A DNA stretch of 64,000 nucleotides, taken from positions 1 to 64,000 of the IMG/VR virus record IMGVR_UViG_3300025853_000048; one strand, given 5' to 3'. Shown here piece by piece: positions 12,372-58,343 of this stretch (positions within the stretch are counted from its first letter, which is position 1; each line of letters begins with the position of its first letter). The notes beneath the pieces are model-generated. The model was not told the origin of the DNA and did no database searches. It saw only the letters and a program-made list of their open reading frames with translations. Source of the stretch: a virus. The position numbers and the translations under genes were made by a program.

Positions 12372-12457
12372 TTGACTCCCTACCTGTCGAATTTGTTATA
12401 ATTGAGTTGGAGCGAAGGTCGCCTGATGCTCCCTCGCTCAACATTAACTGTTATGCC
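12372..12457 (+). promoter_or_regulatory. array A anchor site: sigma70-like promoter, L-box hairpin and R' core (attI-like candidate)
   Basis: TTGACT(12372)-N19-TATAAT(12397) with TGn extension, then a GTTGGAGCG...CGCTCAAC hairpin and GTTATGCC at 12450. Homologous to 47790-47877. Confidence 0.65.
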
Positions 12458-13272: not shown

Positions 13273-13310
13273 TTGTTCCTCCCGGCCTACCTGTGCTCAA
13301 GCGTTATCTC
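13192..13310 (+). repeat. attC-like site A1
   Basis: GGCATAAC..GCAGCAGGTAAGGCCG...CGGCCTACCTGTGC..GTTATCTC, with two unpaired bases in the left arm. Confidence 0.85.
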
Positions 13311-14092: not shown

Positions 14093-14119
14093 GGCCTACC
14101 TGTGCTCAAGCGTTCTGCT
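13999..14119 (+). repeat. attC-like site A2
   Basis: GAGATAAC..GCAGCAGGTAAGGCCAT...ATGGCCTACCTGTGC..GTTCTGCT. Confidence 0.85.
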
Positions 14120-14360
14120 CGGAATAATTGAAGTCTTTCTCGTATTCTCGAAGGGCGAGCAACAGCCCCGTCGAAACATCTGCGATCCTCTGCGCCTCAC
14201 CCACTTCATTCCTCCGAATGCACAGATAGGCGCGGTGGTTGAGTTCGCGTAGGATTGCCCCGACTTCAGTAGGGTTGTAGATGTCATCCTCGGAAGCAGA
14301 ACAAGTCGTGGATGAACAAGGTTCATTCCTTCCTTCGTCAGTCATTTCACCTGTCATCAC
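14106..14360 (-). CDS. hypothetical protein, cassette A3 (paralogue of the N-terminus of 52533..52925)
   Basis: TEVGAILRELNHRAY...GEAQRIADV resembles ITVGQLLREIVHRCH...DRAKELAEI. Confidence 0.65.
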   Translation of the reverse strand: MMTGEMTDEGRNEPCSSTTCSASEDDIYNPTEVGAILRELNHRAYLCIRRNEVGEAQRIADVSTGLLLALREYEKDFNYSEQNA

Positions 14361-14374
14361 TCATACGTTCTCCC
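14295..14374 (+). repeat. attC-like site A3
   Basis: AGCAGAAC..GTGGATGA...TCATCAC..GTTCTCCC. Confidence 0.8.
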
Positions 14375-27100: not shown

Positions 27101-30100
27101 CGGTTTCCGGGAAGCCTGCGATTCGGTTGATTTTGGCGAAGTAGGTTTCTGGGCTTTGGTCTTGTCGTTCATCGTTAAATATATCCTCGGTTTGGGATGC
27201 GTCATCACGGTTTTTCTGTTCGCGTTGTGCGAACGTTAAATATTCCCGAAGCGTCTCATCGAACGGGAATTCGTTAGAACTCCGGTCTTTCTTCAGCTTC
27301 GTTGAAGTCACCAGGTCATCCAGTAACAGTTGACCGATCTCAGAGAGTGGTTCGCTGACCAGTTCGGCTTTACGGTTGGTCAGCCAGTCGGACAGGTTGC
27401 GGAAGTTGCCCTGCTCGACTGCGTGCATTCCCGACCGCAGGGAAAGGATCGCTTCGACCACATCGCCTGCCAGGGACAAATCATCGTCGAGTTTCGCCAG
27501 TTCCGGCGCTACCTTGGCAACTGCGGAGACGATGCGCTTGCCGCCGTCGCTCTCCAGTATAGCGGTAACATCAGCGGAGTCTTTCCCTGCCTTTTCCACT
27601 AGACGAGTCACAAATGCTGCCATGACTCGACGGGATGCTTCGGCCTGGTCAAATTCTCCCGATTGGGTCCGGGTGATTCCCCTGGCAGATTGTTCCAGTT
27701 TGGTGGCGACTGCCCGCAGAGAATCGGCGGTGAGTTGATTATTGACGTTGAACCGCAGCCCGGACAGGGTGCTGTAGCCGATGGCTTCGGCATCAAGTAA
27801 CGCCTGCTCGGAAACGGATTCGCCGAGTCCGCCCTGTTTCGGGTTGCTTTCGACCACGAAAGATCGTTGATCGCCACTGGTGAACTCAATCACTTCGCGG
27901 ATAAGGACCGGTTGTTTGACCCCGGCAAGATTAATGCCTTCTTCCTGCGCAAAATCGCGAACCGCAGTTTCGTAGGCCATGGCGTTGCCCCGTTCGTAGG
28001 CGAGGCGTATTCCGCTCGATCTTCCGTTTCCGGCGATAACGCTTCCGCCTGAAACAACCGGAGCGCCATCGTTGGCCTTGCGAGAATCTAGCAGGAAGTC
28101 GGGATCGATGGATGAAGCGATTCGCTCTATCTGCTCCATCGAAGAACGATTCCCGCTTCTCTGTCGGGTCTGATCAGCATTGATCTCTGCCTCGATCATC
28201 CCGTCTAAATCTGTGGCATCAACCACCCTGTAACGGAAAGTCGCCTTGGCCCCGTTCGGGGTTCCGGTTGAAATAGTGCCGTCAATATCGGCCACATCCG
28301 GGCTTTTCGCGCCATCTGCGGGGCTTTTCTGTCCGGTATTAGGTTTCCTGACAGTTACTGCCGGTTTCTTGTAGTTGATTGGTGTATAAACTGTTCGACC
28401 GGATTTGGTGCCCTTCTGAGCGTTGGAAAGATCAACGTCGTAACCTCTCCTTGAGAGTGCTTCGTAAACCCTGTAGGCAGGCTCCGAAACATAGTTGTCT
28501 GACATAACATCTTTCCCATCCTCATGCGCCTTGTCAATAATCGCCTGGTAAGCCTTAATTCCCAACTTCTTGCCCTGATGTATTCCTTGCAGGGTGGATT
28601 TATGGATTCTTACTTTACCTTCATACTCACCGGCAGTCACGTACCCGACTTCTACGTCTTTTTCATCCCGTATCGAAGCTCTAAAACCATCCTCAGAAAG
28701 TTTAATTGACCCTTCTTCCTCGAAAACGCTCTCGTCCAGGTCGAAGACTCCGGTGTTGCCGGGGTGCTTGCCTGCCTTCGCGGTCTTCTTCGATTTGGTT
28801 TGCGCGAATTCCTCCAACCGTTGCACTTGCTCTTCGGTGATCGGAGCCAGTTTATTTGGAGCATTAACGTCATCCCAATCAGCCTCCCGCTTCTGGCCTT
28901 TATCGACCATGAAGACCTTGGAAATGAAATCTTGCGCTTCCACCCCTTCTTTACCGATGCTCGCCTCGCTGTAGCCGAGCAACTCTTCAATCACTCTGTC
29001 TTTGTCATTGCGAACCGATACAACATCGCCAACTTGCGTCCTTCTCAGGGCGAACATGACTTCAGCAACCCGGGAAAAGAATGCGCCTTTTAGACCTTCA
29101 TCCTTGCTCGCTTCTTGATGGGAGAGATCTGCGATTCGTCCCGCTTCCTTCTGCAACTTCAAGCTTCCGGCGTAGGTTTCGATGGCTTGCTCTGCCAATG
29201 CAATAGGATCGGTTTTCTTCGCTGCGGTCTTCTTCTTGGGGGTTTGCACAGCAACCTCTGAGAGGTCCATTTCCACTATTTGCCCTATCAACTCCTTTGG
29301 CCCCGGCTCGACAATTGTTCCTGAGAAAATACCGTTACCCAAATCATTAGTGACCTCAACACTCCTGAAAATACTGCTACCGGTTGGGTCGTAATAAATA
29401 ACCTCACCTACGTTGGGGTATTTTGTGACACCTGGATGAGGTCCGGGGTGTCTTTTTGAATCTTCTGAAAGGTCTACTCCTGTTATGTTTACCAGGCGGT
29501 CTTTATAGGATTCTATCGCTGCCTCAACCTCGTAGATTGACAACCATCCACCCGTTTTTTTCAACAACTCAGATTTAGCCTTATCGGTCTTGAGTTCATT
29601 GTAGCGACTTGTAATACTGAAAAGATCACCAAGGCGTTTGCGGTGCGCAACTTCTGAAGCTGATTTGGGAAGTGCTTTTCTGGGGTTATCACTCCACAAT
29701 TCAAGTTTCTTGCCTGGGGCTGACTTTGCAAAAATAGCAGCGCCTTCCCCTAGACGTTTCTCTTCCGCATCTTCAAAGTCTTTGCCGGTTTCGCCTTTGA
29801 TTTCATTGATCTTATCCTGATAGGATTTACCATCCCTCCGTTCTTTTTCTTCCCAGAACTGAACGGCGTCTTCAATTCGTTGAGACTCAACTGGAAGAGC
29901 GTTGTACCGTTCACTTTCGGCGCTTATATCAGCAAGAAGTTTAGACTCAACATTATCAAGATAATCTTTCACCCCGACCCAGAAAAACAGATTCTTATTT
30001 GGGCGGACATTGGCACTTGATGAGAAATTACGAACTTTCTCTCTAACCATGTTAAGCATGGAATTCACCTTATCCAGATCCCTATTTAATCCTTCAACAT

Positions 30101-36100: not shown

Positions 36101-39100
36101 GCGGCTGCAGGTCGAACAGTCCTTCCGATTCGCGGTTTTCGTAGGGTTGGAATTCTCCACCCTCATCCTTTACATCAGGGCCAATTGTGATAATCAGGTC
36201 CACGTTGCCTACATCGGGGTATGCTTCGTAAAGTTCTGGGTGATCAAGAATATCGCTGACAAAAGTTGCCCTGGTGTAATCAGATTGAACTGGTCGCACG
36301 GTGTATCCGGAATCCAGCTTGTTGAGTTTTGTCACTTCAGCATCCGCTCCTGCCTGGTCGTCATACCCGGAAACCTCGTTGCCTCTGGAGTCCACAACGT
36401 TGTAAACGGTTGCGGAATCGCTCACGCCATCCTTGAAGGAAGCGCCTTTATCCGGAATCTCCCACCGCATCTTGCCGTCATACCTGCCTGGGAACCAGCC
36501 GGTCACGGCCCGGATCTCCTTGGCCGACTTACCTGCCGCTGCCATGGCCTTGGCTGTCTCCAGTGTGTCCTGCATTACCTCTGGAATAGCGGCAGTTTCG
36601 CCAGCGTATTGGGTAAGCACGCCTTCCTTCTTGTCGGTCATCCGCTTCAACCGCTGGAAGACCGCTTTTTGCCGGTTCGGCTTCAGGCTGGCGACATTGT
36701 TCAGGAAGTGAGCGGTAACCATTCCCAGGGCTGCGTCATTTTCACGATCGCCAGTTTCCAGGAAAGTAACCATCTCGCGTACCGCTGCATTGACCGATTT
36801 CGGGTCATTCAGGTCGGCGGTTTGTGGAGTCTTGCCCCCCGCTTGCTCTTGGAGCTTCTTGCGTGCGGTTTCCCGCTTGTCTTGATCACTGACTTCCTTC
36901 TTTCCAAGGTTGCGCGGTGGCGTGTAGCTCGATTCGGCTTGGCTGCTCGCCTTGGCTATGCCGGTAGTCGTGGGGGGAACCGTTTCCGCCACAACACCCT
37001 TTTTCCCGGCAGTTGTGGCGGCTTCGACCGGCTCGACAATCGCCTTCATCGGCTGAAACTCGCCAACCCCATCGTGCATGTTCCAGCCGGGGCGGATCAC
37101 TCGCACTTTTTCACCGCGGACCACGTTGCTTTCGCCCGCGTGTAATCCAGGATCGGCAGAAACAACCTCGCCTTCTGCCCCGATCTCGATGAATCCAGCA
37201 TCGCGAAACATCTCGTTAATCAGCTCGCGGGTTTCATCGTTCTCTGCGTGCCTGTAGGCCGTCTGTAGCTGTATAAAAAACTTGCGTTGCACTTCTGCCG
37301 TGGAAGCATCGATGTGATTAATGCTCCTGCCGGTAATGCCTTTCGCCTCGTCCGCGAATACCGTTTTGATCAAACTGTTGAATGATGCACGCATGGACTT
37401 CATCACCGCTTTCGGAACGGTTTTACTCTTATCCATTTCGCGCATCTTCGCCTTGGCGTTGGCAACTGCTGTACGGAATTCTGCCGTCTTATCGTCCACC
37501 TGGGCTTCCTCCACCACCTCAGGGTTCCGCATCTCATCCAATCGGCGCTGAAAATCCTGGCGATTGCCAACTAAGTGCGTCGAGTAGTTGCGCTTGTAAG
37601 CATCAAACAGTTGATCGTCATCAGCCTTGCCGTCGAAACTCTCCTGCAGGAAGGTGATGTTCTTGGCGAAGGTTTCGGGGGTGATGGGAACTTGCTTGGA
37701 TTTCGGCTTCTTGGTGCTGGGCGCTTTACTCCCGGATTCCTCGCCCTTCCACTCATCGACCACCTTCTGCCCAGCCTCGGTAATCTCATACTCTCCGGCC
37801 TCGTTAAGCCTCGCGTAAGCCTCCGGGCGCTCTTTGGTGGTGTTGGTGAGGAAAGATAGATATCGCTTGCCAGCGGGCCTGTCCGTGTCTCCTGCGAGGT
37901 TTAGCAGGGCATCAAACATGGATGCGCTGGAAATACCTTTCGGAAACTTCGGTTTTGCGCCTTTCGCGGCGTGAATTTCGATATTTTCAGCCAACGACGG
38001 CGTTTTGGCGTCCAGATCCGGACCTGCCGCCTGCCGCATCTGGTTGAGACGTTTGACAATCCGTTTCCTCTGATCGATGGCCATTGCCTTGGTTTCCGGA
38101 TCCTTGATCTCGGTAATCATCCGGGATAGGTTTTGCGCCACCTGCTTGAGCCACCTGATAATGACCGGCATCATGTATTCGATACCCTCAATCTCTGTAA
38201 CCCGACCGGCAAACTCCTTGTCCTGGATGATCATCCGGTGGAATTCGTGAGCGCCTAGAAAGTCTCCTTTTTTCAGACTGGAGAAACGATCAACCGGTTC
38301 ATGCCCCAGGTACTGTTTCAGATATGTGATAATTTCCGGCGTACCCTTTGCTACCTGATCGATAAATTCATCGCTAATATCCAACGACTCGCTCCGAGCA
38401 ACTTCCTGATCGATTATTTCGACAGCTTCTAGGGCATCTTCCCGGTATTGTTTCGGGACGCCTTTTAGACGGGAAATAAAGTATGATCGCTCCACTTCTC
38501 GTTTGATATCTTCAGGCAAGGCTCGCCATAACTCTTTAGCCTCTCTTATCGACAACTCCTCTAGTGCCGCCTGGTGAATCAACTCCTCACTGAGTAATAC
38601 AGCAATCCTTTCCTGGGAGTAACCGCTCCTGGCCAGCCACCCCAGATCGACCTTCAGGGCAACATCGCCATTGGGTAACTTGCGGACGCTCATCGCCGTG
38701 CCGGAAGCGACTTCCTCAAGGCCAACTTGTTGAATTTCTTCAATCGGTCCGTAAACAATACCCCCTGGAAACGCACGCTCGCCATACTTGGCAACTTCCA
38801 ACTCGATCACCTCTGCAACTTTTTCAGCCTTTTTCTGGTAAGTGGGAGGGATTTCATCGATTGCCACGGCAAGATCATCGGTACCCTGGTCATTCGGCAC
38901 GATGTAATCCCTTTTCTCCGGCAACGGATCAGGAACCTTGTTGCCTTTAGGTTTCGGGTAGGCCTGCTTCTGCTTCGGACGCTTGCGCTCGGTCGGCTCC
39001 TTGCGCTTCGGCTTGATCACCGATTCAATGCCGTCAGTCAGTTCTCTCAGTGCCGGGTTTTCATCCAGGTTGTTGTAAATCCAGTTCAGGAACTTCTTCA

Positions 39101-43985: not shown

Positions 43986-44252
43986 TGAGGGGAGTTATGT
44001 GGGGAAATTGGAAATGTTTAGTGCGGTGAAAGGTGGAGCTCCGTGTCAAATTTCGTCGTCAGAGATTATCAGTTTGGGATCCCTGATCAAAGTTCGTCGG
44101 TTCTTGGCTTTCTTCTTGGCCATCGCTTTCTTTTTGCGCTTCTTCAGCGGCATTGGCAGCGGCAGGCCGAGGCGGGAAAAATGCTTCGGCATGAACTCCG
44201 GGTCGTTATCCCGGAGAGTGACAGCGTTGGTTCCTGTGTGGTTATCCATAAC

Positions 44253-45128
44253 TTACAGTTTTGCGAAAAGATCCCTCCGGGCGTTTACCTTCTTCTGTGA
44301 TTTAGGCGCATCTTTCTGACGTGAATCCATGGTCGAATCCCACACGCTGGAGAAGCGGTTTTCTGCGGTCGCGTAGTCTTTCTTTTTCTGGGCTTTCGCC
44401 TTATCGCGTTCAGCGATCTTTTTATATTCAGCGTCAATCTTGGCTTGCGTGCCGGCACTTACTCCGGACCGCTTGGCTAATACCCCCTGGTTGCCTTTTT
44501 TACCTGTGTCGGCGTCTCCAGGAGTTTCCATGAAACCTTCCTTTTTACCTGGCGGCAGGTCTTCGGGCTTTTCTTTCCCGGGTTGCGGTTTAGCGGCCTG
44601 ACCGGCTGCTGGTAAACCCAGCCTGCCATTGTTGTCCTGCATCTCGCGATTGGATCGCACATCCAGCATGTTGGCTCGATTCTCGTATTTCTTGCGAACC
44701 GAGTCATGCAGGTTTGCGTACATGCTCCGGGCCTTCTCCTCTGCCTGTCCCTGGTTCAACCCTTTAAATGGGCCTTCCCGGTAGATGAATCCAGGCTTCT
44801 TACTGCCGCCTTTCATCCGCGGGGTTCCGCTCAACGCCAATCCACGGGAAAGGAACGCCTCAAACCCGCCCGCACGGCGGTTTTGGGATGGTGGAATCAG
44901 CGGTTTTGCTGCCGCTGGCTTATCTGCCGCTGGCTTATCTGCCGCTGGCTTATCTGCAACGGCGGCTTGCTGACCCTGGCCTGTCGGCGCGTTCTGGCTC
45001 ATAGGCTTCGGGGCTTGCGGCGATCTGCCAGACGACATGATCGAAAAGCTGGTGCCGCCTTTGGGTTCTGAAATGCCCGATGCGGCCATTTCCTCAGGAG
45101 TCATTTTCTTTTTAGGGAGTTGATACAT
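44253..45128 (-). CDS. basic low-complexity protein, possible internal virion protein
   Basis: 291 aa, Lys/Ala/Gly/Pro-rich, ADKPA x3 (15-bp tandem repeat); upstream of the giant gene. Confidence 0.65.
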   Translation of the reverse strand: MYQLPKKKMTPEEMAASGISEPKGGTSFSIMSSGRSPQAPKPMSQNAPTGQGQQAAVADKPAADKPAADKPAAAKPLIPPSQNRRAGGFEAFLSRGLALSGTPRMKGGSKKPGFIYREGPFKGLNQGQAEEKARSMYANLHDSVRKKYENRANMLDVRSNREMQDNNGRLGLPAAGQAAKPQPGKEKPEDLPPGKKEGFMETPGDADTGKKGNQGVLAKRSGVSAGTQAKIDAEYKKIAERDKAKAQKKKDYATAENRFSSVWDSTMDSRQKDAPKSQKKVNARRDLFAKL

Positions 45129-45146
45129 AGTGGATGGGAGTAAAAT

Positions 45147-45536
45147 CTAACTTGCCGGGGCCAGTGATCCGCCGTTTTCCAGGGTTTCGCGGATATGAGC
45201 CATCAACGCGTCTGCCTGTCGGCGACCCATAGCACTCATCGATGCAATCTTCGCCCGGAGCTCCTGGATACGTGCTACACGGTTCTGCTGTTCGCTCCGA
45301 TTGCGTTCCAGGGCTTCCTGATCCCGCATGATGGCGTGGACCTGCTCCTGATTCTCGAGACGGGCAATCCGCTCTTGGTTGATTCGGATTTCCCAGGCCA
45401 TCTTCCGCTTATTGAACTTCGGCGGACCTTTGATAAACTTACTCCGAGTGGAGTAAGAATCAGTGTGGCGGATATGGAGCTTCTTCGCCTTTCGGCGGGC
45501 TTTATGACGGGCGCGGTATTGTTGGCTTTTCGACAT
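45147..45536 (-). CDS. hypothetical basic coiled-coil protein
   Basis: 129-aa ORF; TTGATT-N17-TAAAAA-N8-ATG upstream. Confidence 0.6.
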   Translation of the reverse strand: MSKSQQYRARHKARRKAKKLHIRHTDSYSTRSKFIKGPPKFNKRKMAWEIRINQERIARLENQEQVHAIMRDQEALERNRSEQQNRVARIQELRAKIASMSAMGRRQADALMAHIRETLENGGSLAPAS

Positions 45537-45769
45537 ACAACCGCTTTTTAGAGCGAGTTAGCCGAATAATCAAAACCGTGGCAACAGGTGGTTCAATATG
45601 AGAGAGTTAAATATTGCCCCCTTTGATTTTTGAAAGCAATAATGGAGGATTTGATATACCTACCTACCTATCATGATGGCTTGATCTATGCCTATGCCGC
45701 TAGTTTGAAAACAATTTCACTTCCTCGCCGTTGAAGATGTAAATTCCCTTCTCCGGCATCACTTTCTCA

Positions 45770-46336
45770 TTAATTCGCGAATCCTTCGGTTGCTCTATGC
45801 CCGCACCTTGCGTAACACTTTCGGACGTTCTCCCACGCTTCCCTGTCGCAATCCATACCCAGAGGGCGGAAACTGGAATCTCCTCTTTCTCTCTGATCGT
45901 CATCATGATTGAATGCTGCCTCCAATTCCTTTTCGATCAATGCTTGTGTGTTGGGGTTTATTTGATCCCAGTTTTCTGCCAGGGTTTCAGCGAACAGGAT
46001 GGTCGAACCCGTCATGCGTCCAAGATAGTAGCGGAACGAACAAAAGATCAGGTCATTGATATCCCAGCACTTCTTCTGAGGATTATCGTGTGATCTCAGG
46101 ATGGCTATTGCCTCATTCTCTGATAAACCATTCTGATCGAGGTAAACTCTTAGCAAATCAGCGAACTCGACTTGTTGGTACCGCTTGAGTCTGGCTCGGT
46201 CGGGTTGCGTGTCTAGCCAACTGGCTGAAACAGCGTAGCACCAGGCCAACGTGGTTGTAAGTTCTGATTGATCGAGTGCTGATACCCTCTTTGATTCCTC
46301 GGTAAGAAGATCGATCGCTGACTTTGACTTGCTCAT
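45770..46336 (-). CDS. hypothetical protein
   Basis: 188 aa; contains SFRYYLGRMT and GMDCD...W, seen in small phage proteins. Confidence 0.65.
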   Translation of the reverse strand: MSKSKSAIDLLTEESKRVSALDQSELTTTLAWCYAVSASWLDTQPDRARLKRYQQVEFADLLRVYLDQNGLSENEAIAILRSHDNPQKKCWDINDLIFCSFRYYLGRMTGSTILFAETLAENWDQINPNTQALIEKELEAAFNHDDDQRERGDSSFRPLGMDCDREAWENVRKCYARCGHRATEGFAN

Positions 46337-47445
46337 TATTCTTCAACCATGCTCACCTGGACTTCAACAGTGGGATCTTCTCCGTTAGTAACGACGGTGA
46401 AACTGGAAAACCCTGTTGGTTGGTCTCCGTCCTGTGCGTCTCCCATCGCTCCTGTATTGGCATGAGTTACGGTAACGACGGATCCTGAAGCACTGGCTGA
46501 ATAATCTGCATCCCCATTAATCGCTGCGGCAATGGTGGTTGCCAGGGTGTCATCATCCATTGTATCAGTCACTGTGGTTATCTCTACGCTTCTGGTTAAT
46601 GCTGCAGACCCTGATGGTTCTGCGGTCCCCGTGTCGCCAACGTCAATCCAAAACCCCACTGTTCCTGCATCATCACTGAGTTGGATGTAGGTGCCATCCA
46701 GAACGCCCTGATCAGCCCCGTTTGTCGTGACGGTAAAGTCGGTAAATCCTGTTGTTTGAGCTCCGTCTTCCCCGTCCGCTACATCTCCCTCGGTGGCGTG
46801 GGTTACGGTAACGACTGATCCGGAAACCGTAGCAGAAAATTTACTATCAGCATTAATCGCTGTGGCCATCTTGGCTGCTACAACTAAAGCCGTGTCGTCA
46901 GTGGCAATTGTTGTTACCTCAACACTTCTGGTCAGTGCCGCAGATCCTGCCGGTTCACTGGTTCCCGAGTCATCGGTATCAATCCAGAACCCTACGGTAC
47001 CGGACTCGTCACTGAGTTGGATATACTTACCATCCAGAGAATCTGAAACATCCGCAACAGCCGTGAACGTTTCGACCTGGGCGACCGCTCCGGTCCCCGT
47101 CACATCGAATGACTCGACCTGGGCAACGACATAACTTTTAAGATGTAACGCGTTGCCGTTTAACCGCATGATAAATGACTCGCCAGGGTTGATCCGGAGC
47201 GGGTAGTTGGTTCCGTCATCGCCGGCCCTGACGTAATTGGTTGCATCCAGGTTTTTGATCCGGGCAACTCCAATAGTTGCAAGATCTCCCTTATCAACTG
47301 ATATGCCAGAAGAGGTGGCGGATGCGATGGTTTCCAGGTACAGATCGCCAGAGACATCGATTTTTTGCTGCTCGGCAGTCCGTTTGAGACTGGCGCCGCC
47401 TTTATCAAATTCGAATGATGTGAGTAGGTTTATTTCGTCGGCCAT
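46336..47445 (-). CDS. putative virion structural protein with an internal duplicated domain
   Basis: Two ~120-aa repeats (LDG.YIQLSD..GTVGFWID....GSAALTRSVE.TT....SGSVVTVTHA). Confidence 0.7.
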   Translation of the reverse strand: MADEINLLTSFEFDKGGASLKRTAEQQKIDVSGDLYLETIASATSSGISVDKGDLATIGVARIKNLDATNYVRAGDDGTNYPLRINPGESFIMRLNGNALHLKSYVVAQVESFDVTGTGAVAQVETFTAVADVSDSLDGKYIQLSDESGTVGFWIDTDDSGTSEPAGSAALTRSVEVTTIATDDTALVVAAKMATAINADSKFSATVSGSVVTVTHATEGDVADGEDGAQTTGFTDFTVTTNGADQGVLDGTYIQLSDDAGTVGFWIDVGDTGTAEPSGSAALTRSVEITTVTDTMDDDTLATTIAAAINGDADYSASASGSVVTVTHANTGAMGDAQDGDQPTGFSSFTVVTNGEDPTVEVQVSMVEE

Positions 47446-47512
47446 GTTATTTGGGGGTTGGTGGTTTTAATAGGGGGTATTTATAACACCTTTATTTACA
47501 AAACTTAAGTAA

Positions 47513-47770
47513 TTATTTCACCTGGTAAAAGAAAACTCCCTCCCGGGAATCAAGATTGATTTCGCCGATGAACACCATGTTTTGAAGCAGGGTGATCCAC
47601 CATTCCAGGGATCGTTTGCGGTTTCGATAGAACTTGTTGAACTCAGTGGCGGTTTTCTCTCTGTGGAAATATTGCTTTAATTCTGCTACCTCTTCCGAGA
47701 AGGCCTTGATTTCCTTGCGGATCTCCTTCTTGCGTCGGGATATGCTTAGCTCTGCTGTTGAGTTCTTCAT
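47513..47770 (-). CDS. hypothetical protein
   Basis: Likely start MKNSTAEL at 47770 (85 aa). Confidence 0.5.
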   Translation of the reverse strand: MKNSTAELSISRRKKEIRKEIKAFSEEVAELKQYFHREKTATEFNKFYRNRKRSLEWWITLLQNMVFIGEINLDSREGVFFYQVK

Positions 47771-47789
47771 GATTGTGGTGGTTTTTGTC

Positions 47790-47877
47790 TTGACTGGGTG
47801 GGTTGCGGTTCTGTTAAAATGATGTTGGAGCGCGAGGTCGCCGAGGGCTCCCCGGCTCAACTAATTACTGTTCTCCT
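47790..47877 (+). promoter_or_regulatory. array B anchor site: sigma70-like promoter, L-box hairpin and R' core (attI-like candidate)
   Basis: TTGACT(47790)-N19-TAAAAT(47815) with TGn extension, GTTGGAGC...GCTCAAC, and GTTCTCCT at 47870. Confidence 0.65.
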
Positions 47878-48739
47878 GAGATAACTGCTCCTTAAGTTCC
47901 ATCAGTTCATCAATGATTTCATCCTGGCGCCAAGGGTCAATTTTTTCCCATTCCATTTTCGTGTCCAAGTCCTCTCTACCACAGGAATCCACGCGCATCA
48001 TGCAGTTCAGAATCTCTGCCGCCACCTGCGGCACTATCGCGTTTCCGAGTCCTCTAAGTCGGTCCAATGCTCGGGGTACCCCATCAAAATCTCGACAGAA
48101 ACAGGATCCCATTTCAATTTGGCGTATTCCGTTCCCCTCAATTTGTTTTGGCTCCCACCTGCTTCCTGGACTGTTCCGTTCCATTTTTCGCTTCCCGCGC
48201 ACGGCGTGGGCAAGAATCCAGACTCTATCTCTCCGATGTTGCGCCCCGATGGCACAAGCCGGAATAATGATTGCCTGCGCGGAGTAGCCAATCCCCTCCA
48301 AGTCAGAAAGCACTTCATCGAGGCCCATCGTGATGTGACCAGCAACATTTTCACACAATGCCCAACGGGGTCGGAGGTGTCCAAGAATTCGCAATAGTTC
48401 CGGCCAGAGGTGACGGTCATCTTCCGCGCCTCTTCGCTTCCCGGCGCTACTGAAAGGTTGGCAAGGGTATCCTCCGGTAATAAGCTCAATTGTTCCATAG
48501 TTATCAGGGTCTAAAGTTTTTACGTTGTCGTGGATTGGTACGCCGGGGAAGTTCTTCGCCAGCACCTTTTGCGCCCATGGGTCTACCTCGCAGAACCCCA
48601 CGGTTTCGATTCCTCCGACCATGCGAGCTGCCAGGGCGAAACCACCGATACCGGAGAACAGGTCGAGATGCCGCAAAGGAGAACAAGACGCAGCAGGTAA
48701 TGCTTCATCCCGTTGGTCTGTTCGCATACCTGTGCTCAT
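47861..48739 (-). CDS. C5-cytosine DNA methyltransferase, cassette B1
   Basis: LDLFSGIGG, GGYPCQPFS, ENV, QHRRDR, LGNAIVP. Confidence 0.92.
   Translation of the reverse strand: MSTGMRTDQRDEALPAASCSPLRHLDLFSGIGGFALAARMVGGIETVGFCEVDPWAQKVLAKNFPGVPIHDNVKTLDPDNYGTIELITGGYPCQPFSSAGKRRGAEDDRHLWPELLRILGHLRPRWALCENVAGHITMGLDEVLSDLEGIGYSAQAIIIPACAIGAQHRRDRVWILAHAVRGKRKMERNSPGSRWEPKQIEGNGIRQIEMGSCFCRDFDGVPRALDRLRGLGNAIVPQVAAEILNCMMRVDSCGREDLDTKMEWEKIDPWRQDEIIDELMELKEQLSQENSN
48034..48498 (-). CDS. alternative-frame ORF overlapping the C5-MTase
   Basis: 154-aa ATG-started ORF with MEQLSLLPED...EARKMTVTSG...LPTP...VEILMGYP..WTDL, a pattern I recall from overprinted frames of phage C5-MTases. Confidence 0.5.
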   Translation of the reverse strand: MEQLSLLPEDTLANLSVAPGSEEARKMTVTSGRNYCEFLDTSDPVGHCVKMLLVTSRWASMKCFLTWRGLATPRRQSLFRLVPSGRNIGEIESGFLPTPCAGSEKWNGTVQEAGGSQNKLRGTEYAKLKWDPVSVEILMGYPEHWTDLEDSETR

Positions 48740-48749
48740 ACGTTCTGCT
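48677..48749 (+). repeat. attC-like site B1
   Basis: AGGAGAAC..GCAGCAGGTAATGC...GCATACCTGTGC..GTTCTGCT. Confidence 0.85.
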
Positions 48750-48811
48750 AGTAAATCCCCATCATCATCTCATCCTCTCCTCCAGCACTTTCCACGAAGG
48801 AAATAGGGGCA

Positions 48812-49147
48812 TTAGGATTCCACTTTTCCGCTTTCTCTTGCTCTGATCCATCCGTCTTCCCAGACGTTGGCGATGATATTTTCGGCGTCTCCTTCTCCGA
48901 GTCCGTATTCGAGGAGGATGTTTCTGATTCTGTGGTAGTATTCATTGTCTGTAAATCCGAGCCAGTCGCGACCCCAAGGGGATCCTGTGCAATCTGTTCC
49001 CGAGAAGTCTATCTTGATATTGATGTCCACAACCCCGTCAGCAGAACAAGACGCATCAGCCAATGACTGTTCTTTAGGTTTTTTATCGTCTGATTCCGTT
49101 GGTTTATCGTTTTGATCACTCATCGTTTTTTGTGGTTGCGCCGTCAT
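48812..49147 (-). CDS. hypothetical protein, cassette B2
   Basis: 111-aa ORF starting inside attC B2. Confidence 0.6.
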   Translation of the reverse strand: MTAQPQKTMSDQNDKPTESDDKKPKEQSLADASCSADGVVDINIKIDFSGTDCTGSPWGRDWLGFTDNEYYHRIRNILLEYGLGEGDAENIIANVWEDGWIRARESGKVES

Positions 49148-49169
49148 GGCTGTGCTTCAGCGTTCTCTC
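49040..49169 (+). repeat. attC-like site B2
   Basis: AGCAGAAC..GCATCAGCCAATGAC...GTCATGGCTGTGC..GTTCTCTC. Confidence 0.85.
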
Positions 49170-49170
49170 T

Positions 49171-49995
49171 TTAAAATAACTCCGGTTGAGGTGGGGCGTG
49201 GTGCTCGGCTTTCGGCTCCGAGAAGTCGAGGACTTCCTGAAGCATCCTTTGGGCTGCTATCTCGCAGTATTTCTCCTGCATCTCGACCCCCACGCATTTA
49301 ACCCCGGCATCTTTACAGGCTCTTAACGTGGTCCCTGATCCCATCCACGGATCGAGAGCAGTTTTTACATCTCCCGCCTGTTGGAGTGCCCACACCATTA
49401 CGTCCAGAGGTTTCTGGGTTGGATGGTCCCGCTTTTCCGATCCTTTTCGAGCCATTCCATTCCACAGATGTTTTTTTATTCGCATCGCTCCATTGAGATT
49501 GTTCCACGCCATCTCACCATCAGCGAAGTTTCCATTCATTTCCTTATCCCAGACTAGCGGCCCTTTGCACGGCGGCAGATCGTAGTAATTCCCCCCGAAT
49601 ATGATTTGTTTTTCGCAGATATTCCGCGCCAGTTCCATTACCCATCTTGGGACTGGTTCTTTATCCCAGTCGGTCAGTTCGTAGGTTCGCTTCGCAACTC
49701 TCCGATGTCCGCTCCCTACTATATTCCCGCTTGCTTTGTGCATCGCTTTATCGGCTCCGATACCATAAGGTGGATCACACAGAAGCAGATCAAACCTCCC
49801 TAGATGCGGCATTATCTTCCCACAGTCGCCGTGATAGATCGTCACATAATCGTCCTGGTAGTAGGGACTGTACAGTGTACAGTCATCCGCTGTACACTGT
49901 ACAGTCGGCTCGTCTGGAGAGAACAAGACGGTGGAGCCAATGCTATCCTCTATGTCGTTTTTCGTGGTTTTCATCGTCGTTCGTTCGGATCGCAT
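49171..49995 (-). CDS. N4/N6 DNA methyltransferase (beta class), cassette B3; close paralogue of A2
   Basis: LCDPPYG, HPTQKP, LDPWMGSGTT; long stretches identical to 13304..14092. Confidence 0.9.
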   Translation of the reverse strand: MRSERTTMKTTKNDIEDSIGSTVLFSPDEPTVQCTADDCTLYSPYYQDDYVTIYHGDCGKIMPHLGRFDLLLCDPPYGIGADKAMHKASGNIVGSGHRRVAKRTYELTDWDKEPVPRWVMELARNICEKQIIFGGNYYDLPPCKGPLVWDKEMNGNFADGEMAWNNLNGAMRIKKHLWNGMARKGSEKRDHPTQKPLDVMVWALQQAGDVKTALDPWMGSGTTLRACKDAGVKCVGVEMQEKYCEIAAQRMLQEVLDFSEPKAEHHAPPQPELF

Positions 49996-50017
49996 GGCTC
50001 ACCTTTAGCGTTCTAAT
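49917..50017 (+). repeat. attC-like site B3
   Basis: GAGAGAAC..GGTGGAGCCAATGC...GCATGGCTCACC..GTTCTAAT. Confidence 0.85.
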
Positions 50018-50468
50018 TCAGTGCCTCTGGGTAACAAATATACTCGCCCAGCTTCTCCATACGATACTCCCAAATACCGCCTTCCACCCGCTTCTTATGG
50101 ACATCGTAGCGACTGCCTAAGACCTTGTGGACCTTATCCTTGCGGAGATCTCGCAACCTGGCTGATATACCAGCCGCGGACTCTGGCGGATAGCCTGCTT
50201 CCTGGGCGATGTCCCCTAAGGTGCGCCACTTGCCATCGGTCATCACCTCGTAAACGGCGGTCAGTTGTTTGCCTAGTCGTTTCGTGTCCTCCGCTTCGAT
50301 ATTCGGACCATCAAAATTGAACTCATCTTGCTCTATCATCTCTCTCTCTTGTCTTTTTAGGTTGTAGATACGGTTTTCCCACTTTTCGGCCCGCTTGGAA
50401 TCGCCCTTCTCCAGGGCGTTTTCCATGTAGATACCGGCCTTGCAAATTCTCTCGTCGATATCGGTCAT
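50013..50468 (-). CDS. winged-HTH DNA-binding protein
   Basis: VYEVMTDGKWRTLGDIA...ISARLRDLRK...WEYRM. Confidence 0.7.
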   Translation of the reverse strand: MTDIDERICKAGIYMENALEKGDSKRAEKWENRIYNLKRQEREMIEQDEFNFDGPNIEAEDTKRLGKQLTAVYEVMTDGKWRTLGDIAQEAGYPPESAAGISARLRDLRKDKVHKVLGSRYDVHKKRVEGGIWEYRMEKLGEYICYPEALN

Positions 50469-50821
50469 CTTTTAAAACTGGATAGTTTTTTGTCGCAGTA
50501 TATCTCTTTGTCATATTCTACATCGGGATCAAACCTCCATCCAGATCCGTGTGGTCTTTCGACGCTCCCTCTAACTACCCTTCCTGTTGCAAATTCAACG
50601 CATTGATACCACTGCATTTCATCTGCTTGCTGCCAAGTAGCGACGATTTCTTCAACGGATTCGAACGAGCCTACATAATCAGACCATCCACCACCTGCAT
50701 AGTAGCATTGTGGAGATCCAAACATTAGGTACGGTTTAGTTGTATTAGCTCTGAGAATGGCTACAGCTTGGCTTTCCGTTATGCCTATCTCGTCAATTGC
50801 TTGTGCTAGTATATCCATCAC
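50465..50821 (-). CDS. hypothetical protein
   Basis: 118 aa; 4-nt overlaps with both neighbours. Confidence 0.6.
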   Translation of the reverse strand: MMDILAQAIDEIGITESQAVAILRANTTKPYLMFGSPQCYYAGGGWSDYVGSFESVEEIVATWQQADEMQWYQCVEFATGRVVRGSVERPHGSGWRFDPDVEYDKEIYCDKKLSSFKR

Positions 50822-51036
50822 TTCACCCCAATCGCCTTTTTGATTTCTTCAGTCGATCCATCTCCTTCCAGCATCTCGATCACTTCGGAAAAAGGTTTGA
50901 AATGCGGGTTGCTCGATTTGCTCTCTTCCGCTCGCGACTGATTTGACAGTCCTTTATTCCGAAAAATCCGGTCGTAGTTGGCGCGAAACTGATCGCCGTT
51001 CACGGGTCGTGGTTTATCTCCTTTGCCTGCACTCAT
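50818..51036 (-). CDS. conserved small phage protein
   Basis: N-terminal GKGDKPRP...F..NYDRIF motif. Confidence 0.65.
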   Translation of the reverse strand: MSAGKGDKPRPVNGDQFRANYDRIFRNKGLSNQSRAEESKSSNPHFKPFSEVIEMLEGDGSTEEIKKAIGVK

Positions 51037-51195
51037 CTTAATCTCATCTCATCTTGCACGGAAGCCCGAGGCAGGATTAACCAAGGTAAAAAACACTCTG
51101 CCCCGGGTTTCGTGATCTTGGCGGCAGTCTTTTTGGAACGCCGCCCCAACAGGGCATTGTATGGAAAAATTGATTGTTTTCAAATGTTAATTTGC

Positions 51196-51489
51196 TCATT
51201 TTCGGCCCTCTTCAGCAACCCGGACTGCGTTGCGGACCAGGCTGGTGAATATTGACAACTGGGTCTTGGGGGGTGCGCTCCTGTGTCCCCGTTCCCGTGC
51301 CATGTGGAAATAGCCGCAGAATTCGCATTTGTAGACAATCAGCGGGGTTCCGGATTTCTTCTCTGATTGCGCTTTAGCGGTCAGTGCGAGTTTGCGCCTT
51401 TTGTAAGCGTGCTTGCCGCATTTTCGGGGTAGTTTGGCGACCTTTTCGTGTGCTCTGCGTTGCCTAGGTTTCTGTGTTCTTTTGCTCAT
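51196..51489 (-). CDS. small basic Cys/His protein
   Basis: CGK..Y...A...YKCEFCGYFHM. Confidence 0.6.
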   Translation of the reverse strand: MSKRTQKPRQRRAHEKVAKLPRKCGKHAYKRRKLALTAKAQSEKKSGTPLIVYKCEFCGYFHMARERGHRSAPPKTQLSIFTSLVRNAVRVAEEGRK

Positions 51490-52531
51490 CTTTTTCGCTC
51501 AATACGTTGGTTTCAAAAGCCCCGCTCATATTGGTGTGGTTGTAGGTCTGGTTCGTTATATCCAAACCGCTATGCCCTAGTTTGTAACTGATCTCCTCCA
51601 GCGTCATGCCTTTCTGATAGGCGTGCGTGGCGACCGAGTGACGCAACATGTGCGGTGTGCATTTCGGCAACTGGTGTGCCTTGCAAAGTTTGTTCAGAAA
51701 ATCATTTACCCAGTGCCGGGAGTAGCCCACCCATTGCCCATGTACCTTGTGCGAGAAGATCGGTTCAGTCTCATCGTCGCGGCCTTTGTCCTGGATGTGC
51801 TTTTCGATCCTGACAGCGATCCTGTACGGGATCTCCACTCTGCGTGTCTTCTTGCCCTTGGTGTTCTCTGATCGAAAAATGAAATAATGCTGCCCTGTGG
51901 CACCGTCTCTGCGGAAGTCCTGCGCCTGGAGTGATATGAATTCCGTTACCCTGGCACCAACTGAGTAGAGCGTGTAGAACGCCAACCATCGGATCTGATC
52001 GGCTGTTCCTGCCGTGCCTTTGTCCTTGCGTTCTTCGAGCACGTCCAGCCATCGCTCCACCTCCGGTTCACTCAGAACCTTGTCTTCGATGATTCTATCG
52101 GGCCGCTGCAGTTCGATTTCAACTCCGACGTTATACTGTAGATAACCCAGTCTTTGCGCGTATGACATCAGGGATTTAATCGGATCAATGCGAGTGCGGA
52201 TCGATGCGGGTTTGAGCGTCTGTCCGTTGGGTAACGTTTCCGCTTTGACCTGATCGACGTATTCAGTCATGTCTGCCAGGGTGACGGTTCGTAATGGTTT
52301 TTCCCAGCCGATAAAATCTCGGAACTTGCGGATATTGAGCGCGTAAGTCTCCTGCGTGTTCTCCGATGGACGGGAGCGGATAAACATTTCGATTAGGTGA
52401 TCGTCGTCCCGAGCTCCGGACATATCCGGTTTCGGCTGGTGCGGGTGGTCGATCGGGGTGCCGACTGCATACTGCTTCCGCTCTGCGATGTCGCCAGGTT
52501 CGGGGTCCAGGATTTCGAATTCTTCAGGCAT
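51464..52531 (-). CDS. tyrosine recombinase (XerC/D-like)
   Basis: SAM-like N-domain (SENTQETY); catalytic R (GARVTE), K (TKGKKTR), HxxR (HMLRH), H (LGH), Y (QTYNH). No IntI-specific insert visible. Likely start MPEEF at 52531. Confidence 0.9.
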   Translation of the reverse strand: MPEEFEILDPEPGDIAERKQYAVGTPIDHPHQPKPDMSGARDDDHLIEMFIRSRPSENTQETYALNIRKFRDFIGWEKPLRTVTLADMTEYVDQVKAETLPNGQTLKPASIRTRIDPIKSLMSYAQRLGYLQYNVGVEIELQRPDRIIEDKVLSEPEVERWLDVLEERKDKGTAGTADQIRWLAFYTLYSVGARVTEFISLQAQDFRRDGATGQHYFIFRSENTKGKKTRRVEIPYRIAVRIEKHIQDKGRDDETEPIFSHKVHGQWVGYSRHWVNDFLNKLCKAHQLPKCTPHMLRHSVATHAYQKGMTLEEISYKLGHSGLDITNQTYNHTNMSGAFETNVLSEKDEQKNTET

Positions 52532-52532
52532 T

Positions 52533-52925
52533 TTAAACTCTCTGCAATTCACCGGATAAAACATCGTGTTCAATACACGGATCAATAATTTCCCAGCCCA
52601 GTTCTCTTAAATCGTCCTGGACATCACACATTTCCGACCACGCTTCTTTTGGGTCTAGCTCGTAAGCATAGTCATATCGGAACCAGGGGCGACCACCTGA
52701 TTCCCCGATCGTCACGTTGGAGCGAACGCTGATCAGTTCGGATAGGGATTTCGGAGGGGGTTTCAGATCGCACATATTAAGAGCCTTGGAAATATTCTCG
52801 CCAATCTCTGCCAACTCCTTGGCGCGATCCTGATTGCCTTCTCTTGCCTCTTTATGACACCTGTGGACGATTTCGCGCAACAATTGCCCTACAGTTATCT
52901 CACTTAACAAATCTTCTTTATTCAT
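52533..52925 (-). CDS. hypothetical protein
   Basis: 130-aa ORF in the operon. Confidence 0.6.
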   Translation of the reverse strand: MNKEDLLSEITVGQLLREIVHRCHKEAREGNQDRAKELAEIGENISKALNMCDLKPPPKSLSELISVRSNVTIGESGGRPWFRYDYAYELDPKEAWSEMCDVQDDLRELGWEIIDPCIEHDVLSGELQRV

Positions 52926-53202
52926 CTTTTCCTCTCAGTTGCCCGATCACTGCCGCTTCTTGACTGCGGATGTAGGCATTGAAAACCTCGCCTCGCGAAA
53001 CCTTCTTTTCCTCCACGTATTGAGCAAGGATCGGGTTGAGCTCTAACAACCGGTTAATGATAGTATACGCAGGGCAGTAGTGGCCGGAATTGGGGATTTC
53101 CTCACCACAATCATCGCAGTCGCAGCGTTGCGATAGCGAAATCATTGTGCCGTCGTCGTCCCAAAAAACCAATTGCGCTGACTCTTCCTTTTCTTCACTC
53201 AT
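52918..53202 (-). CDS. hypothetical protein with Cys motif
   Basis: CDCDDC...HYC; 8-nt overlaps with neighbours. Confidence 0.55.
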   Translation of the reverse strand: MSEEKEESAQLVFWDDDGTMISLSQRCDCDDCGEEIPNSGHYCPAYTIINRLLELNPILAQYVEEKKVSRGEVFNAYIRSQEAAVIGQLRGKDE

Positions 53203-54055
53203 CTAACTTTGTTGCTCTCACATAGGTAGGAGCTACCCATTTGATGATTTTTTCTTTCCTTCCCTTCCCTGTTCTGAAGGTATGGAAATGGCCAATTCGG
53301 TAATGAGCCTTTCGGAAATCAACCGTTCCTCCACCTTCCCTTTCTCTGGTTTTGTAGTCCTTGGATGTGATCCTTGTGACCGAAAGCCCAGGGGATTCCC
53401 TTAGGCGCTTTCTTATAGGACTCATTTTTCTTGATCTTTCATGGATCTGCTTCTTTTCCATATCAAGATTCGATGTGAGTAGGCACATGATTGTAGCTTT
53501 AATTATTCGCAGTGGCTCGCAATTGTTGGTGAAATCAAAATTCTTACTAACCTCGGCAGTATATACCCCCCTGTAGTCTTTCTTGGTCTTAACCCATGAG
53601 ACTAATCTTATATATTCTTGATCATAAACAAAGCAAACCCCATGCAGGAACACCTTATCATCTTTTTCAACAACTCCCTGCTGGACCCAGCACGGATCTT
53701 CCGACTCCATTTTGACATTTATTGCAATGGGGATGTTTATTTGGAGATCGTAGGTTTTAAGATCTTCACGTGAAAAATATGATGTTTGTTGATAGATGTC
53801 CTTGAACAATTCGCGGTCCACATCAACAACTTTCCTCGTCGCTAAATAAGCCCCAGCCATATAACATGCCCTCGCATCATCTTTGCTTTGTTTATACGCG
53901 CCTTCGTAAGTCTCGCTTGCTGTCGCTATTTCCTCCTCAGTCATGTCTGGAAGGACTGGGCTAAAACTACGAAACCCGAATTTAATCAGTTCGCTAGCCT
54001 CATTAGATCTGCTTGCTTGACTCGCGTACTCGTTTATCACTGAATCGACCATCAT
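53195..54055 (-). CDS. hypothetical phage protein
   Basis: C-terminal H.R.GHF....G.GR.....KW..P..V motif. Confidence 0.7.
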   Translation of the reverse strand: MMVDSVINEYASQASRSNEASELIKFGFRSFSPVLPDMTEEEIATASETYEGAYKQSKDDARACYMAGAYLATRKVVDVDRELFKDIYQQTSYFSREDLKTYDLQINIPIAINVKMESEDPCWVQQGVVEKDDKVFLHGVCFVYDQEYIRLVSWVKTKKDYRGVYTAEVSKNFDFTNNCEPLRIIKATIMCLLTSNLDMEKKQIHERSRKMSPIRKRLRESPGLSVTRITSKDYKTREREGGGTVDFRKAHYRIGHFHTFRTGKGRKEKIIKWVAPTYVRATKLDE

Positions 54056-54132: not shown

Positions 54133-54160
54133 ACTCAACATAAGTCGGGTTTTGTTAAGT
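54133..54160 (-). repeat. dif-like site D1
   Basis: Minus strand ACTTAACAAAA-CCCGAC-TTATGTTGAGT (11-6-11). Confidence 0.55.
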
Positions 54161-55351: not shown

Positions 55352-55379
55352 GTTCAACACAAGTCTGCTTTTGTTAAGT
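55352..55379 (-). repeat. dif-like site D2
   Basis: Minus strand ACTTAACAAAA-GCAGAC-TTGTGTTGAAC. Confidence 0.5.
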
Positions 55380-56310: not shown

Positions 56311-56336
56311 ATTTAACAAAATTACTTGTGTTGAGT
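56311..56336 (+). repeat. dif-like site D3 (4-bp spacer, degenerate)
   Basis: ATTTAACAAAA-TTAC-TTGTGTTGAGT. Confidence 0.45.
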
Positions 56337-58315: not shown

Positions 58316-58343
58316 AGTCTACAAAATTGGACTTATGTTGAGT
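58316..58343 (+). repeat. dif-like site D4
   Basis: AGTCTACAAAA-TTGGAC-TTATGTTGAGT. Confidence 0.55.

Follow-up and report, generated by a model that had tools for sequence, protein, structure and literature searches.

Do the hairpins that punctuate three successive minus-strand genes at positions 47870-50017 of a viral sequence mark the joints of movable gene cassettes, and if so of what kind? The window, the whole stretch of DNA analysed here, comprises positions 1-64,000 of the 89,449-base IMG/VR virus record IMGVR_UViG_3300025853_000048. Its locus at 47870-50017, array B, encodes in succession a C5 cytosine DNA methyltransferase, a 111-residue protein without family and an N4/N6 DNA methyltransferase. 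Read along the plus strand, GTTCTNNN stands before each gene and NNNAGAAC after it, their NNN being complementary every time, and each copy of NNNAGAAC opens an imperfect inverted repeat of 73-130 nt that closes in the next GTTCT. An earlier note on the window, made from its letters alone, had read the locus as an inverted array of integron-type cassettes, the hairpins resembling attC recombination sites and the genes forming a swappable anti-restriction methylation kit. We conclude that array B and its sister, array A, are very probably a cluster of phage-borne integron-type gene cassettes.

Each cassette begins, on the plus strand, at the TT of one GTT and closes with the G of the following GTT; its gene is on the minus strand and an attC-type site forms its right end. 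So delimited, cassette B1 (47871-48742, 872 bp) has the end pair GTTCTCCT (47870)/AGGAGAAC (48677) and carries the C5 methyltransferase gene (292 aa, 47861-48739, minus strand; PF00145, E 4.9e-40; TIGR00675, 105 bits). The start and first ~20 residues of this gene are encoded by its own 73-nt attC-type site (48677-48749), and its final residues and stop codon lie within the invariant head of the array, which we call anchor B (47813-47869, plus strand). Anchor B contains a bulged hairpin, GTTG-G-AGC...GCT-CAAC, with a folding energy no better than that of shuffles; 8 nt separate this hairpin from the G that opens the first GTT. Cassette B2 (48743-49162, 420 bp), with the end pair GTTCTGCT (48742)/AGCAGAAC (49040), holds the gene of the 111-residue, acidic protein (48812-49147, minus strand) and a 130-nt site (49040-49169). 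The protein had no match in Pfam, PHROG or NCBIfam and no usable match in the ESM Atlas, where its model has a pLDDT (predicted local distance difference test) of 0.46. Cassette B3 (49163-50010, 848 bp), with the end pair GTTCTCTC (49162)/GAGAGAAC (49917), carries the N4/N6 methyltransferase gene (274 aa, 49171-49995, minus strand; PF01555, E 1.2e-14; phrog_67, E 1.7e-37) and a 101-nt site (49917-50017); in the right end of this site, GTTCTAAT, the upstream phage gene (50013-50468) has its stop codon. A covariance model, R1, built only from phage sites and with these three among its training members, scores them at 70.8, 87.0 and 89.6 bits, respectively.

The same rules hold in array A (12451-14374, plus strand), which is headed by anchor A (12372-12449, plus strand), homologous to anchor B by alignment. 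It consists of cassettes A1 (12451-13303; attC 13192-13310) and A2 (13304-14112; attC 13999-14119), each encoding a PF01555 methyltransferase, and A3 (14113-14367; attC 14295-14374), with an open reading frame (ORF) of 84 aa. Simple patterns and the covariance model found only these six sites in the whole record. A2 and B3 are paralogues (61% protein identity) whose end pairs, GTTATCTC/GAGATAAC and GTTCTCTC/GAGAGAAC, differ at one position, and the difference is matched at the far end. This compensatory change joins cassette ends ~800 bp apart, and we count it in favour of the cassette reading.

Relatives were obtained by making the 80-nt element left of both arrays into a search pattern, which matched two IMG/VR and eight Joint Genome Institute (JGI) metagenome contigs, one of them twice. 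Cassettes from these contigs and the window were pooled for a count of end matches (c1 denoting the first cassette of a contig, and so on). Duplicates were removed beforehand, namely L010, L017 and L018 (the same as L009c1), L014c1 and L016c1 (B2), L016c4 (L013c2) and L016c5 (A1). Also left out were L012c1, the attC of which is truncated while its hairpin end nonetheless matches 8/8, and a spurious 68-bp 'cassette' of L015 that overlaps the right flank of its array. In 15 of the 16 distinct cassettes that remained, the first 8-mer matches the cassette's own hairpin end at 8/8 positions, and in the sixteenth at 7/8, whereas the physically adjacent 8-mer is matched in only one of the 16. At the five variable positions the counts are 79/80 for the own end versus 43/80 for the adjacent end. 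Eleven different 8-mers occur among the distinct cassettes, and permuting the ends produced 2.07 exact matches on average and never more than 10, so that none of 200,000 permutations reached 15. A seventeenth cassette, in inverted orientation on L012, was found by the covariance model as a non-training hit (70.5 bits); it obeys the rule with GTTCTCTC/GAGAGAAC, bringing exact own-end matches to 16 of 17, with 7/8 in the remaining one. One cassette family of L012 and L015 has the classical ends GCCTAAC...GTTAGGC.

The internal structure of the sites is equally regular. Folded as DNA, the three sites of array B are alike in having an outer AGAAC/GTTCT stem (the R box), an unpaired spacer and an inner stem (the L box). 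Across 17 aligned sites the AAC/GTT pairs are invariant, and 11 of the 13 L-box pairs have changed on both sides, with 93.7% of the cells paired. The structure as a whole is 87.7% paired, versus 28.6-41.6% after sliding the partners by 1-3 columns, and its covariation score of 0.453 compares with 0.140 in shuffles, none of 500 of which reached it. The R box follows the pattern NNNA[G/T]AAC paired with GTT[C/A]TNNN. Its three outermost pairs are unpaired within the array in 8, 5 and 10 of the 17 sites, as expected if these bases pair only with the cassette's own start after circularisation. In all 17 sites two single-base bulges occupy constant positions on the plus-strand 5' arm (the minus-strand 3' arm). 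The first, G or T, comes after 3 bp and the second, A, after another 5-6; on the minus strand they read C or A, and T. The spacer is unpaired and 5 versus 6 nt long; the loops are variable and the sites measure 73-130 nt.

These hairpins are also coding sequence. All 17 cassette genes start inside attC: the right arm holds the ribosome-binding region and ATG, and a leader of 20-35 residues is read from the loop and left arm. In array B the left arm is read through as ALPAASCSP, SLADASCSA and SIGSTVLFSP. The 11-mer that follows the triplet is the same in all three sites and is translated in two frames (ASCSP, ASCSA, VLFSP), so its conservation is at the level of DNA rather than protein. Among the best 120 homologues of the C5 methyltransferase the leader is present in two, the window's own protein and one other, which is 63% identical and has a different loop-encoded N-terminus. 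The earlier note had described array B by its three hairpin sites at 48677-48749, 49040-49169 and 49917-50017, end pairs matching 8/8, two unpaired left-arm bases (G or T, then A), ORFs that start in the right arm and read through the hairpin, and a cargo of C5 methyltransferase, unknown and N4/N6 methyltransferase. Every one of these particulars stands: the sites share one fold layout, the three pairs match in full, the unpaired bases appear both in the folds and in the 17-site alignment, the translations begin as stated, and the cargo is assigned by PF00145 and PF01555 on either side of a protein with no Pfam or PHROG family. Its count of six perfect end pairs in six window cassettes, with five different 8-mers, is likewise correct, and its judgement that chance was very unlikely agrees with the end permutations.

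R1 was then applied to 6 kb of plasmid R100 surrounding its class 1 integron, where the record annotates intI1, aadA1, qacEdelta1 and sul1. It matched the aadA1 attC of In2 over the full model length (30.4 bits, E 1.1e-7) on the aadA1 coding strand and found nothing on the opposite strand. Spacer, 3 bp, bulge, stem and the TCAAGC-GTTA layout are shared between model and match. The phage sites are therefore attC-type. By the strand of this match, the canonical top strand is the plus strand of the window, so the phage genes run antisense to the usual layout of a cassette. Nivina et al. 2016 (PMC5027507) define attC by a conserved AAC triplet, an R box and an L box, extrahelical bases that lie near L'' on the arm facing the cleaved AAC, a central spacer that stays unpaired and a terminal structure that varies; the phage sites have every one of these features. 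The same paper states that cassettes inserted facing the promoter are not observed, which concerns the orientation of the site, and that of the phage sites is canonical relative to the anchor.

With integron cassettes such as aadA1 of In2 the phage cassettes thus share the imperfect AAC...GTT hairpin with its spacer, bulged L box opposite the cut arm and variable loop, as well as a site length of 73-130 nt, own-end complementarity, one gene per cassette and tandem arrangement. They differ in having no integron integrase beside the array or in the record, in genes that all run antisense to the attC top strand and begin within attC, in an R box that is mostly GTTCT or GTTAT rather than GTTRRRY, in an end complementarity of 8 bp versus 6/7 for R100 aadA1 (by eye), and in a first bulged base that is C or A on the putative bottom strand. 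With three sites inside 1.35 kb in array B and three inside 1.2 kb in array A, both are integrase-less attC clusters (CALINs), for which at least two clustered attC sites without intI are required. In a canonical cassette the gene lies upstream of the site and is read from the attC top strand, whereas 17 of 17 genes here lie on the opposite strand. Reversed cassettes are known from chromosomal integrons, for example the toxin-antitoxin cassettes of the Vibrio superintegron, in which the gene runs counter to the attC top strand and thus is not expressed from the integron promoter. Those are a minority with their own promoters, whereas the phage cassettes are reversed throughout and apparently depend on read-through phage transcription.

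Do the cassettes move? The 57 nt of the anchor before 47870 are 100% identical in 10 of 11 copies, and the eleventh (L012_8139) is identical over 52 nt. Immediately after the G|TT of the anchor the sequences diverge, giving at least seven different first cassettes in ten contigs. Different arrays stand behind left flanks that are 100% identical over the 201-600 nt compared (103 nt for L015), and between the same anchor and the same right-flank sequence there is one cassette in L015 and six in L016. Single metagenomes contain different arrays, as in Ga0208767 (L012, L016, L018) and Ga0208899 (L014, L015). Individual cassettes recur in other company: L013c2 and L016c4, second and fourth in their arrays, are 99.7% identical over 794 nt with flanks at 58-65%, and A1 is 95.1% identical over its whole 853 nt to L016c5, which follows four other cassettes, the flanks of the pair being 58-62% identical. 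L014 and L016 agree fully (100%) across the left flank and cassette 1 (413 nt) and part directly behind the next GTT. B2 is 92.5% identical over 322 nt to that same first cassette, which in L014 and L016 lies directly behind the anchor. Three cassette pairs with 95-100% identity, unrelated flanks and breakpoints at GTT thus behave as discrete units. Cassette turnover is shown at the level of the population: cassettes are shuffled in nature, with GTT breakpoints.

Assembled Logan contigs from four freshwater runs were also inspected; their depth and holes derive from contigs and were not used as evidence. A contig of run X11 joins 47869 to 48742, skipping exactly the 872 bp of B1, with 25 letters on its short side. 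The joint carries the same 24 differences in 322 nt as L014 and L016 and so belongs to a related phage rather than to an excision from this genome. Logan contig ends accumulate at 47870, 48742, 49162 and 50010. Two weak joints were noticed besides, one from 48694 to 48805 (depth 2, one contig) and one from 50465 to 50816 (one run X4 contig, depth 2, 26 letters on the short side), which removes almost exactly the ORF 50465-50821; no attC-type site was found at 50465-50816.

Half of the cargo consists of DNA methyltransferases. Among the 16 distinct cassettes scanned, five encode PF01555, one PF00145 and two PF05063 (MT-A70) proteins, and the other eight encode proteins of 84-111 aa without family. 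In the whole 89,449-base record, PF01555 (three matches) and PF00145 (one match) occur only in the four cassette genes; PF02384 had no match there, and neither had PF05063, in a search whose control was blank. Orphan phage methyltransferases protect against restriction, and by analogy the cassette set probably shields phage DNA from host restriction.

Measured against these data, the broader claims of the earlier note fare well. The integron-type array with inverted genes is supported by the L-box covariation, by recognition of the aadA1 attC and by the relatives. That the cassettes are swappable is borne out at population level, gene content and order differing between contigs whose flanks are identical. 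The methylation kit is sustained at the level of domains, with DNA methyltransferases of three Pfam families in 8 of 16 distinct cassettes. All four stand-alone methyltransferases had been placed in cassettes, which remains true over the whole record. The note had named invariant gene content and order across relatives with diverged hairpins as evidence that would speak against it; the relatives show the opposite, with breakpoints at GTT.

Several observations weigh against the integron-type reading. On the plus strand the hairpin energies of five of the six window sites are no better than those of shuffles (z -1.6 to +0.4 in array B), so the evidence is layout and covariation, not energy. The GTTCT and GTTAT R boxes deviate from the printed GTTRRRY consensus, except for GTTAGGCC in L012 and L015, and, on the putative bottom strand, C or A takes the place of the usual G at the bulge closest to the R box. 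Because the hairpins are also present in messenger RNA around the start codon, part of the covariation could serve RNA. R1 missed the published attC sites of Polaribacter phage P12002L (best 15.5 bits, E 0.026, inside a structural gene), which shows that the model is narrow and says nothing about that phage. The contigs yielded neither an excised circle nor a within-strain empty site. No integron integrase was found in the 89-kb record, which is an estimated 86% complete, TIGR02249 being far under its cut-off for both tyrosine recombinases encoded there, nor did a search of the roughly 4-6.5 kb flanking the relatives' arrays on each side find an integron integrase or other recombinase. Finally, one attC module heads four methyltransferase genes that differ from one another, and its homology extends to the left and right of a hairpin-end pentamer that is not the same in all four; a single crossover at GTT does not account for this.

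The module is instructive in itself. The attC module of B3 heads, at ~95% identity, three other and different methyltransferase cassettes, in L012, L013 and L015. Just inside B3, beside the hairpin end, lies a TGTACA-rich palindrome (49866-49906, plus strand) that is kept together with attC in the four cassettes, and palindrome plus attC, about 150 nt, are 80-95% identical among them. The five bases before AAC differ among the four, each matching its own far end. A2 has a homologous palindrome inside its attC loop (14030-14062), and its left arm is placed differently from that of B3 in the same reading frame, owing to a 27-nt in-frame insert in A2. The placement of the left arm in A2 and B3 and the module shared by four genes raise the question of how attC sites become attached to new genes. 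As a separate observation, the palindrome is made of two inverted CTGTACAGTGTACAG-like copies, is translated as TVQCT-like peptides, and accompanies methyltransferase cassettes in L012, L013 and L015 too, with a further copy where cassette 3 of L016 has its 3' end; it may be an operator, or else a target motif for one of the methyltransferases.

As for the enzyme that would move the cassettes, the record encodes two tyrosine recombinases. An Xer-like one is encoded 1.45 kb from array B (51464-52585, minus strand; PF00589, E 2.9e-20) and is a candidate catalyst only. Its best NCBIfam matches are XerA/XerD/XerC, at 92-97 bits, versus 46 bits for TIGR02249, the cut-off of which is 265. Aligned with IntI1 of R100 it shows 23% identity and has 37 gap positions where IntI1 has residues about 195-254, and a sequence search of the Protein Data Bank (PDB) returned XerC-like, XerD, XerA and transposon Int proteins, with no integron integrase among the 8 matches. 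A complete integron has, beside its array, an intI gene for a tyrosine recombinase with an extra domain particular to IntI; judged by its sequence, the enzyme at 51464-52585 is not an integron integrase. A second tyrosine recombinase, at about 81.6-82.8 kb, is more distant from IntI. In the relatives, a PF00589 search of one whole record gave no match, tblastn of the record's minus-strand ORFs of at least 60 aa against ten loci found no recombinase homologue, and among ten large neighbouring ORFs Pfam recognised only collagen/CBM (carbohydrate-binding module), amidase and coiled-coil repeat proteins. Near the Xer-like gene, four similar sites of 26-28 nt lie at gene junctions (54133-54160, 55352-55379, 56311-56336 and 58316-58343). 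These dif-like sites are built as TTAACAAAA, a spacer of 3-6 nt and a ACTTATGTTGAG-like half, and they may be the core targets of the Xer-like enzyme itself, which would argue against its acting on attC sites. We regard a host integron integrase acting in trans as a plausible catalyst, though short of probable, and a phage recombinase as a rather doubtful one, the rest being assigned to neither.

We propose the following course of events. The attC-type site would fold as single-stranded DNA into an outer R box, an unpaired spacer, an inner L box with two bulges on one arm and a variable loop, and a tyrosine recombinase would cut inside the AAC/GTT triplet. Cassettes would be excised as circles and re-inserted mostly at the invariant anchor, which may act as an analogue of attI. 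In the circle the first bases of the cassette would complete its own R box, which would account for the complementarity of each cassette's two ends and the lack of it between neighbouring ends. With the ribosome-binding region, start codon and first ~20-35 codons inside attC, the genes would be expressed from the leftward transcription of the phage. The pay-off may be a set of quickly exchangeable methylation specificities and small proteins that protects phage DNA from host restriction. In its most specific form, this amounts to a phage-adapted integron platform in which attC is co-opted as a translation-start and leader module for antisense cargo, an integrase-less anchor serves as attI, and a non-integron recombinase, such as that at 51464-52585, moves the cassettes, so that related phages trade anti-restriction methyltransferases independently of bacterial integrons. 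We offer this form only tentatively and think it rather unlikely as a whole.

Two further accounts are improbable, each to a similar degree. In the first, co-infecting phages would shuffle modules by homologous recombination between the hairpin arms, used as short linker repeats, without any site-specific recombinase. The promoter/stem-loop mobile cassettes of T4-type phages, short structured repeats between accessory genes, are said to be shuffled in this modular way; to our knowledge they have no own-end complementarity, asymmetric bulges or likeness to attC. In the present arrays the arms share 11-25 nt between sites, assembly contigs break at the repeats, no cognate integrase was found, and the spread of the ~150-nt module of attC and palindrome (80-95%) over four genes resembles exchange by homology. 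Such recombination gives no reason, however, why own ends match in 16 of 17 cassettes and neighbouring ends in one of 16, leaves the conserved bulges and the compensatory L-box changes unexplained, and does not predict breakpoints at GTT even where the arms differ, with flanks of 58-65% beside cassettes of 99.7% identity. In the second account, an ancestral phage captured a piece of a bacterial integron array, which is now inherited as a dead relic without cassette movement in phages. The missing integrase in cis, the truncated attC that ends one L012 array and the fact that published phage examples, as far as the main report describes them, are mostly integrase-less clusters would suit a relic. 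A relic would not be expected to differ behind 100% identical flanks and within single metagenomes, or to keep perfect end pairing in 16 of 17 cassettes, and the orientation of all genes for phage transcription, with attC used as the translation start, indicates long adaptation to phage life.

A role of the hairpins as RNA elements only, processing or translational-coupling structures that hide the start codon until the upstream ribosome arrives, with no movement of genes, fits the enclosure of every cassette gene's ribosome-binding region and start codon, the stop codon of the upstream gene in or beside the outer stem and, equally well, the covariation, but is highly improbable, since it leaves unexplained the own-end complementarity across 300-870 bp, the cassettes found in different arrays, the GTT breakpoints and varied arrays behind identical flanks, and the strand-specific match to the DNA recombination site of a plasmid integron. 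A role in RNA as a second function layered on the recombination site is possible.

Taken as integron-type cassettes, the arrays bear on how integrons are viewed. Integrons are regarded as bacterial adaptation devices. The natural variation described here comprises the gain, loss and re-ordering of cassettes behind a fixed anchor in closely related phages, with a cargo dominated by methyltransferases. It raises the questions of which enzyme moves cassettes without an integron integrase, which DNA strand is used, and how a recombination site can double as translation start and coding sequence. Chromosomal integrons are described in a preprint as storing anti-phage defence cassettes (bioRxiv 10.1101/2024.07.02.601686), and the phage arrays would then be their phage-side mirror.

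Phage attC clusters with methyltransferase cargo are already known. Qi et al. 2023 (PMC9892861), in the main account of a survey of 10,705 isolate genomes, reported 17 CALINs in genomes of virulent and temperate phages, with five methyltransferase cassettes for which an anti-restriction reading was proposed, and five of six assayed phage attC sites recombined with IntI1. Reports of phage attC clusters have so far been mainly of single predicted cases, which an assay showed to function with a bacterial integrase. The kind of element is therefore not new, and the present arrays, which share with those CALINs the clustered attC sites, the lack of an integrase and the methyltransferase cargo, are a well-supported variant. 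They differ from the arrays of two phages described there, which have the typical bacterial orientation; in the parts considered, that report mentions neither start codons inside attC nor genes in opposite orientation, and neither an anchor common to several arrays nor arrays that differ between near-identical phages. R1 missed the sites of P12002L, one of the phages of that survey, and on this ground the present sites are placed in a separate subfamily. A literature search, the supplements of PMC9892861 not being covered, found nothing describing an attC that contains the start codon of its cassette in a uniform antisense design. Nor did it find a phage array with a shared integrase-less anchor, or direct natural evidence of cassette turnover between near-identical phages.

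The anchors have further features. Both (12372-12449 and 47790-47869) show TTGACT and an extended -10-like element, TGTTATAAT and TGTTAAAAT, on the plus strand, with a diverged intervening spacer. The TTGACT and TATAAT/TAAAAT-like hexamers point into the array, antisense to the cargo, at a spacing of 19 nt in the window (by eye), and a consensus promoter scan does not report them. A complete integron has an attI site and a Pc promoter that reads into the array; the invariant anchor occupies the position expected of attI, and the first cassette behind it varies. By eye, the anchor has no similarity to attI1 of R100. In L012 (7300-8140) a promoter-less anchor copy borders directly on an inverted cassette whose attC is complete, so that two arrays stand head to head, and at this junction the attC of the next cassette has no right arm.

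The phage itself, a freshwater one, encodes an SU10-type portal, and essentially all long ORFs are on the minus strand. The record has an estimated completeness of 86%. Regions homologous to its two ends (87542-89449 and 1-346) lie 1.5 kb apart in the relatives L010 and L018, L017 also being among the contigs concerned, so the 89-kb record probably represents an almost complete genome in permuted form, interrupted by a short gap. When 44000-54000 was compared with 50,697 phage records, Megablast gave no match, and a search of IMG/VR for relatives of the portal and recombinase returned none. The 151-aa right-flank protein has one IMG/VR relative, at 40% identity, at locus L001, where R1 found no site. 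The anchor pattern found no host or prophage among 185,579 species genomes. Its lone match, in a metagenome-assembled genome of high-GC Acidimicrobiales, was dismissed as chance, with the rest of the anchor absent and no similarity to the phage. Three IMG/VR loci matching a left-arm pattern were likewise put down to chance, lying inside unrelated coding sequence without a right arm. The relatives' arrays sit among tail-fibre-like and lysis genes. A single minus-strand ORF of 9,595 aa (15135-43922) takes up 45% of the window. In Polaribacter phage P12002L (L023), an identical 18-nt palindromic AAAACAA|GTTTT element occurs at 29215-29232 and 37241-37258, a short way downstream of a methyltransferase gene in one case and a Mom-like gene in the other.

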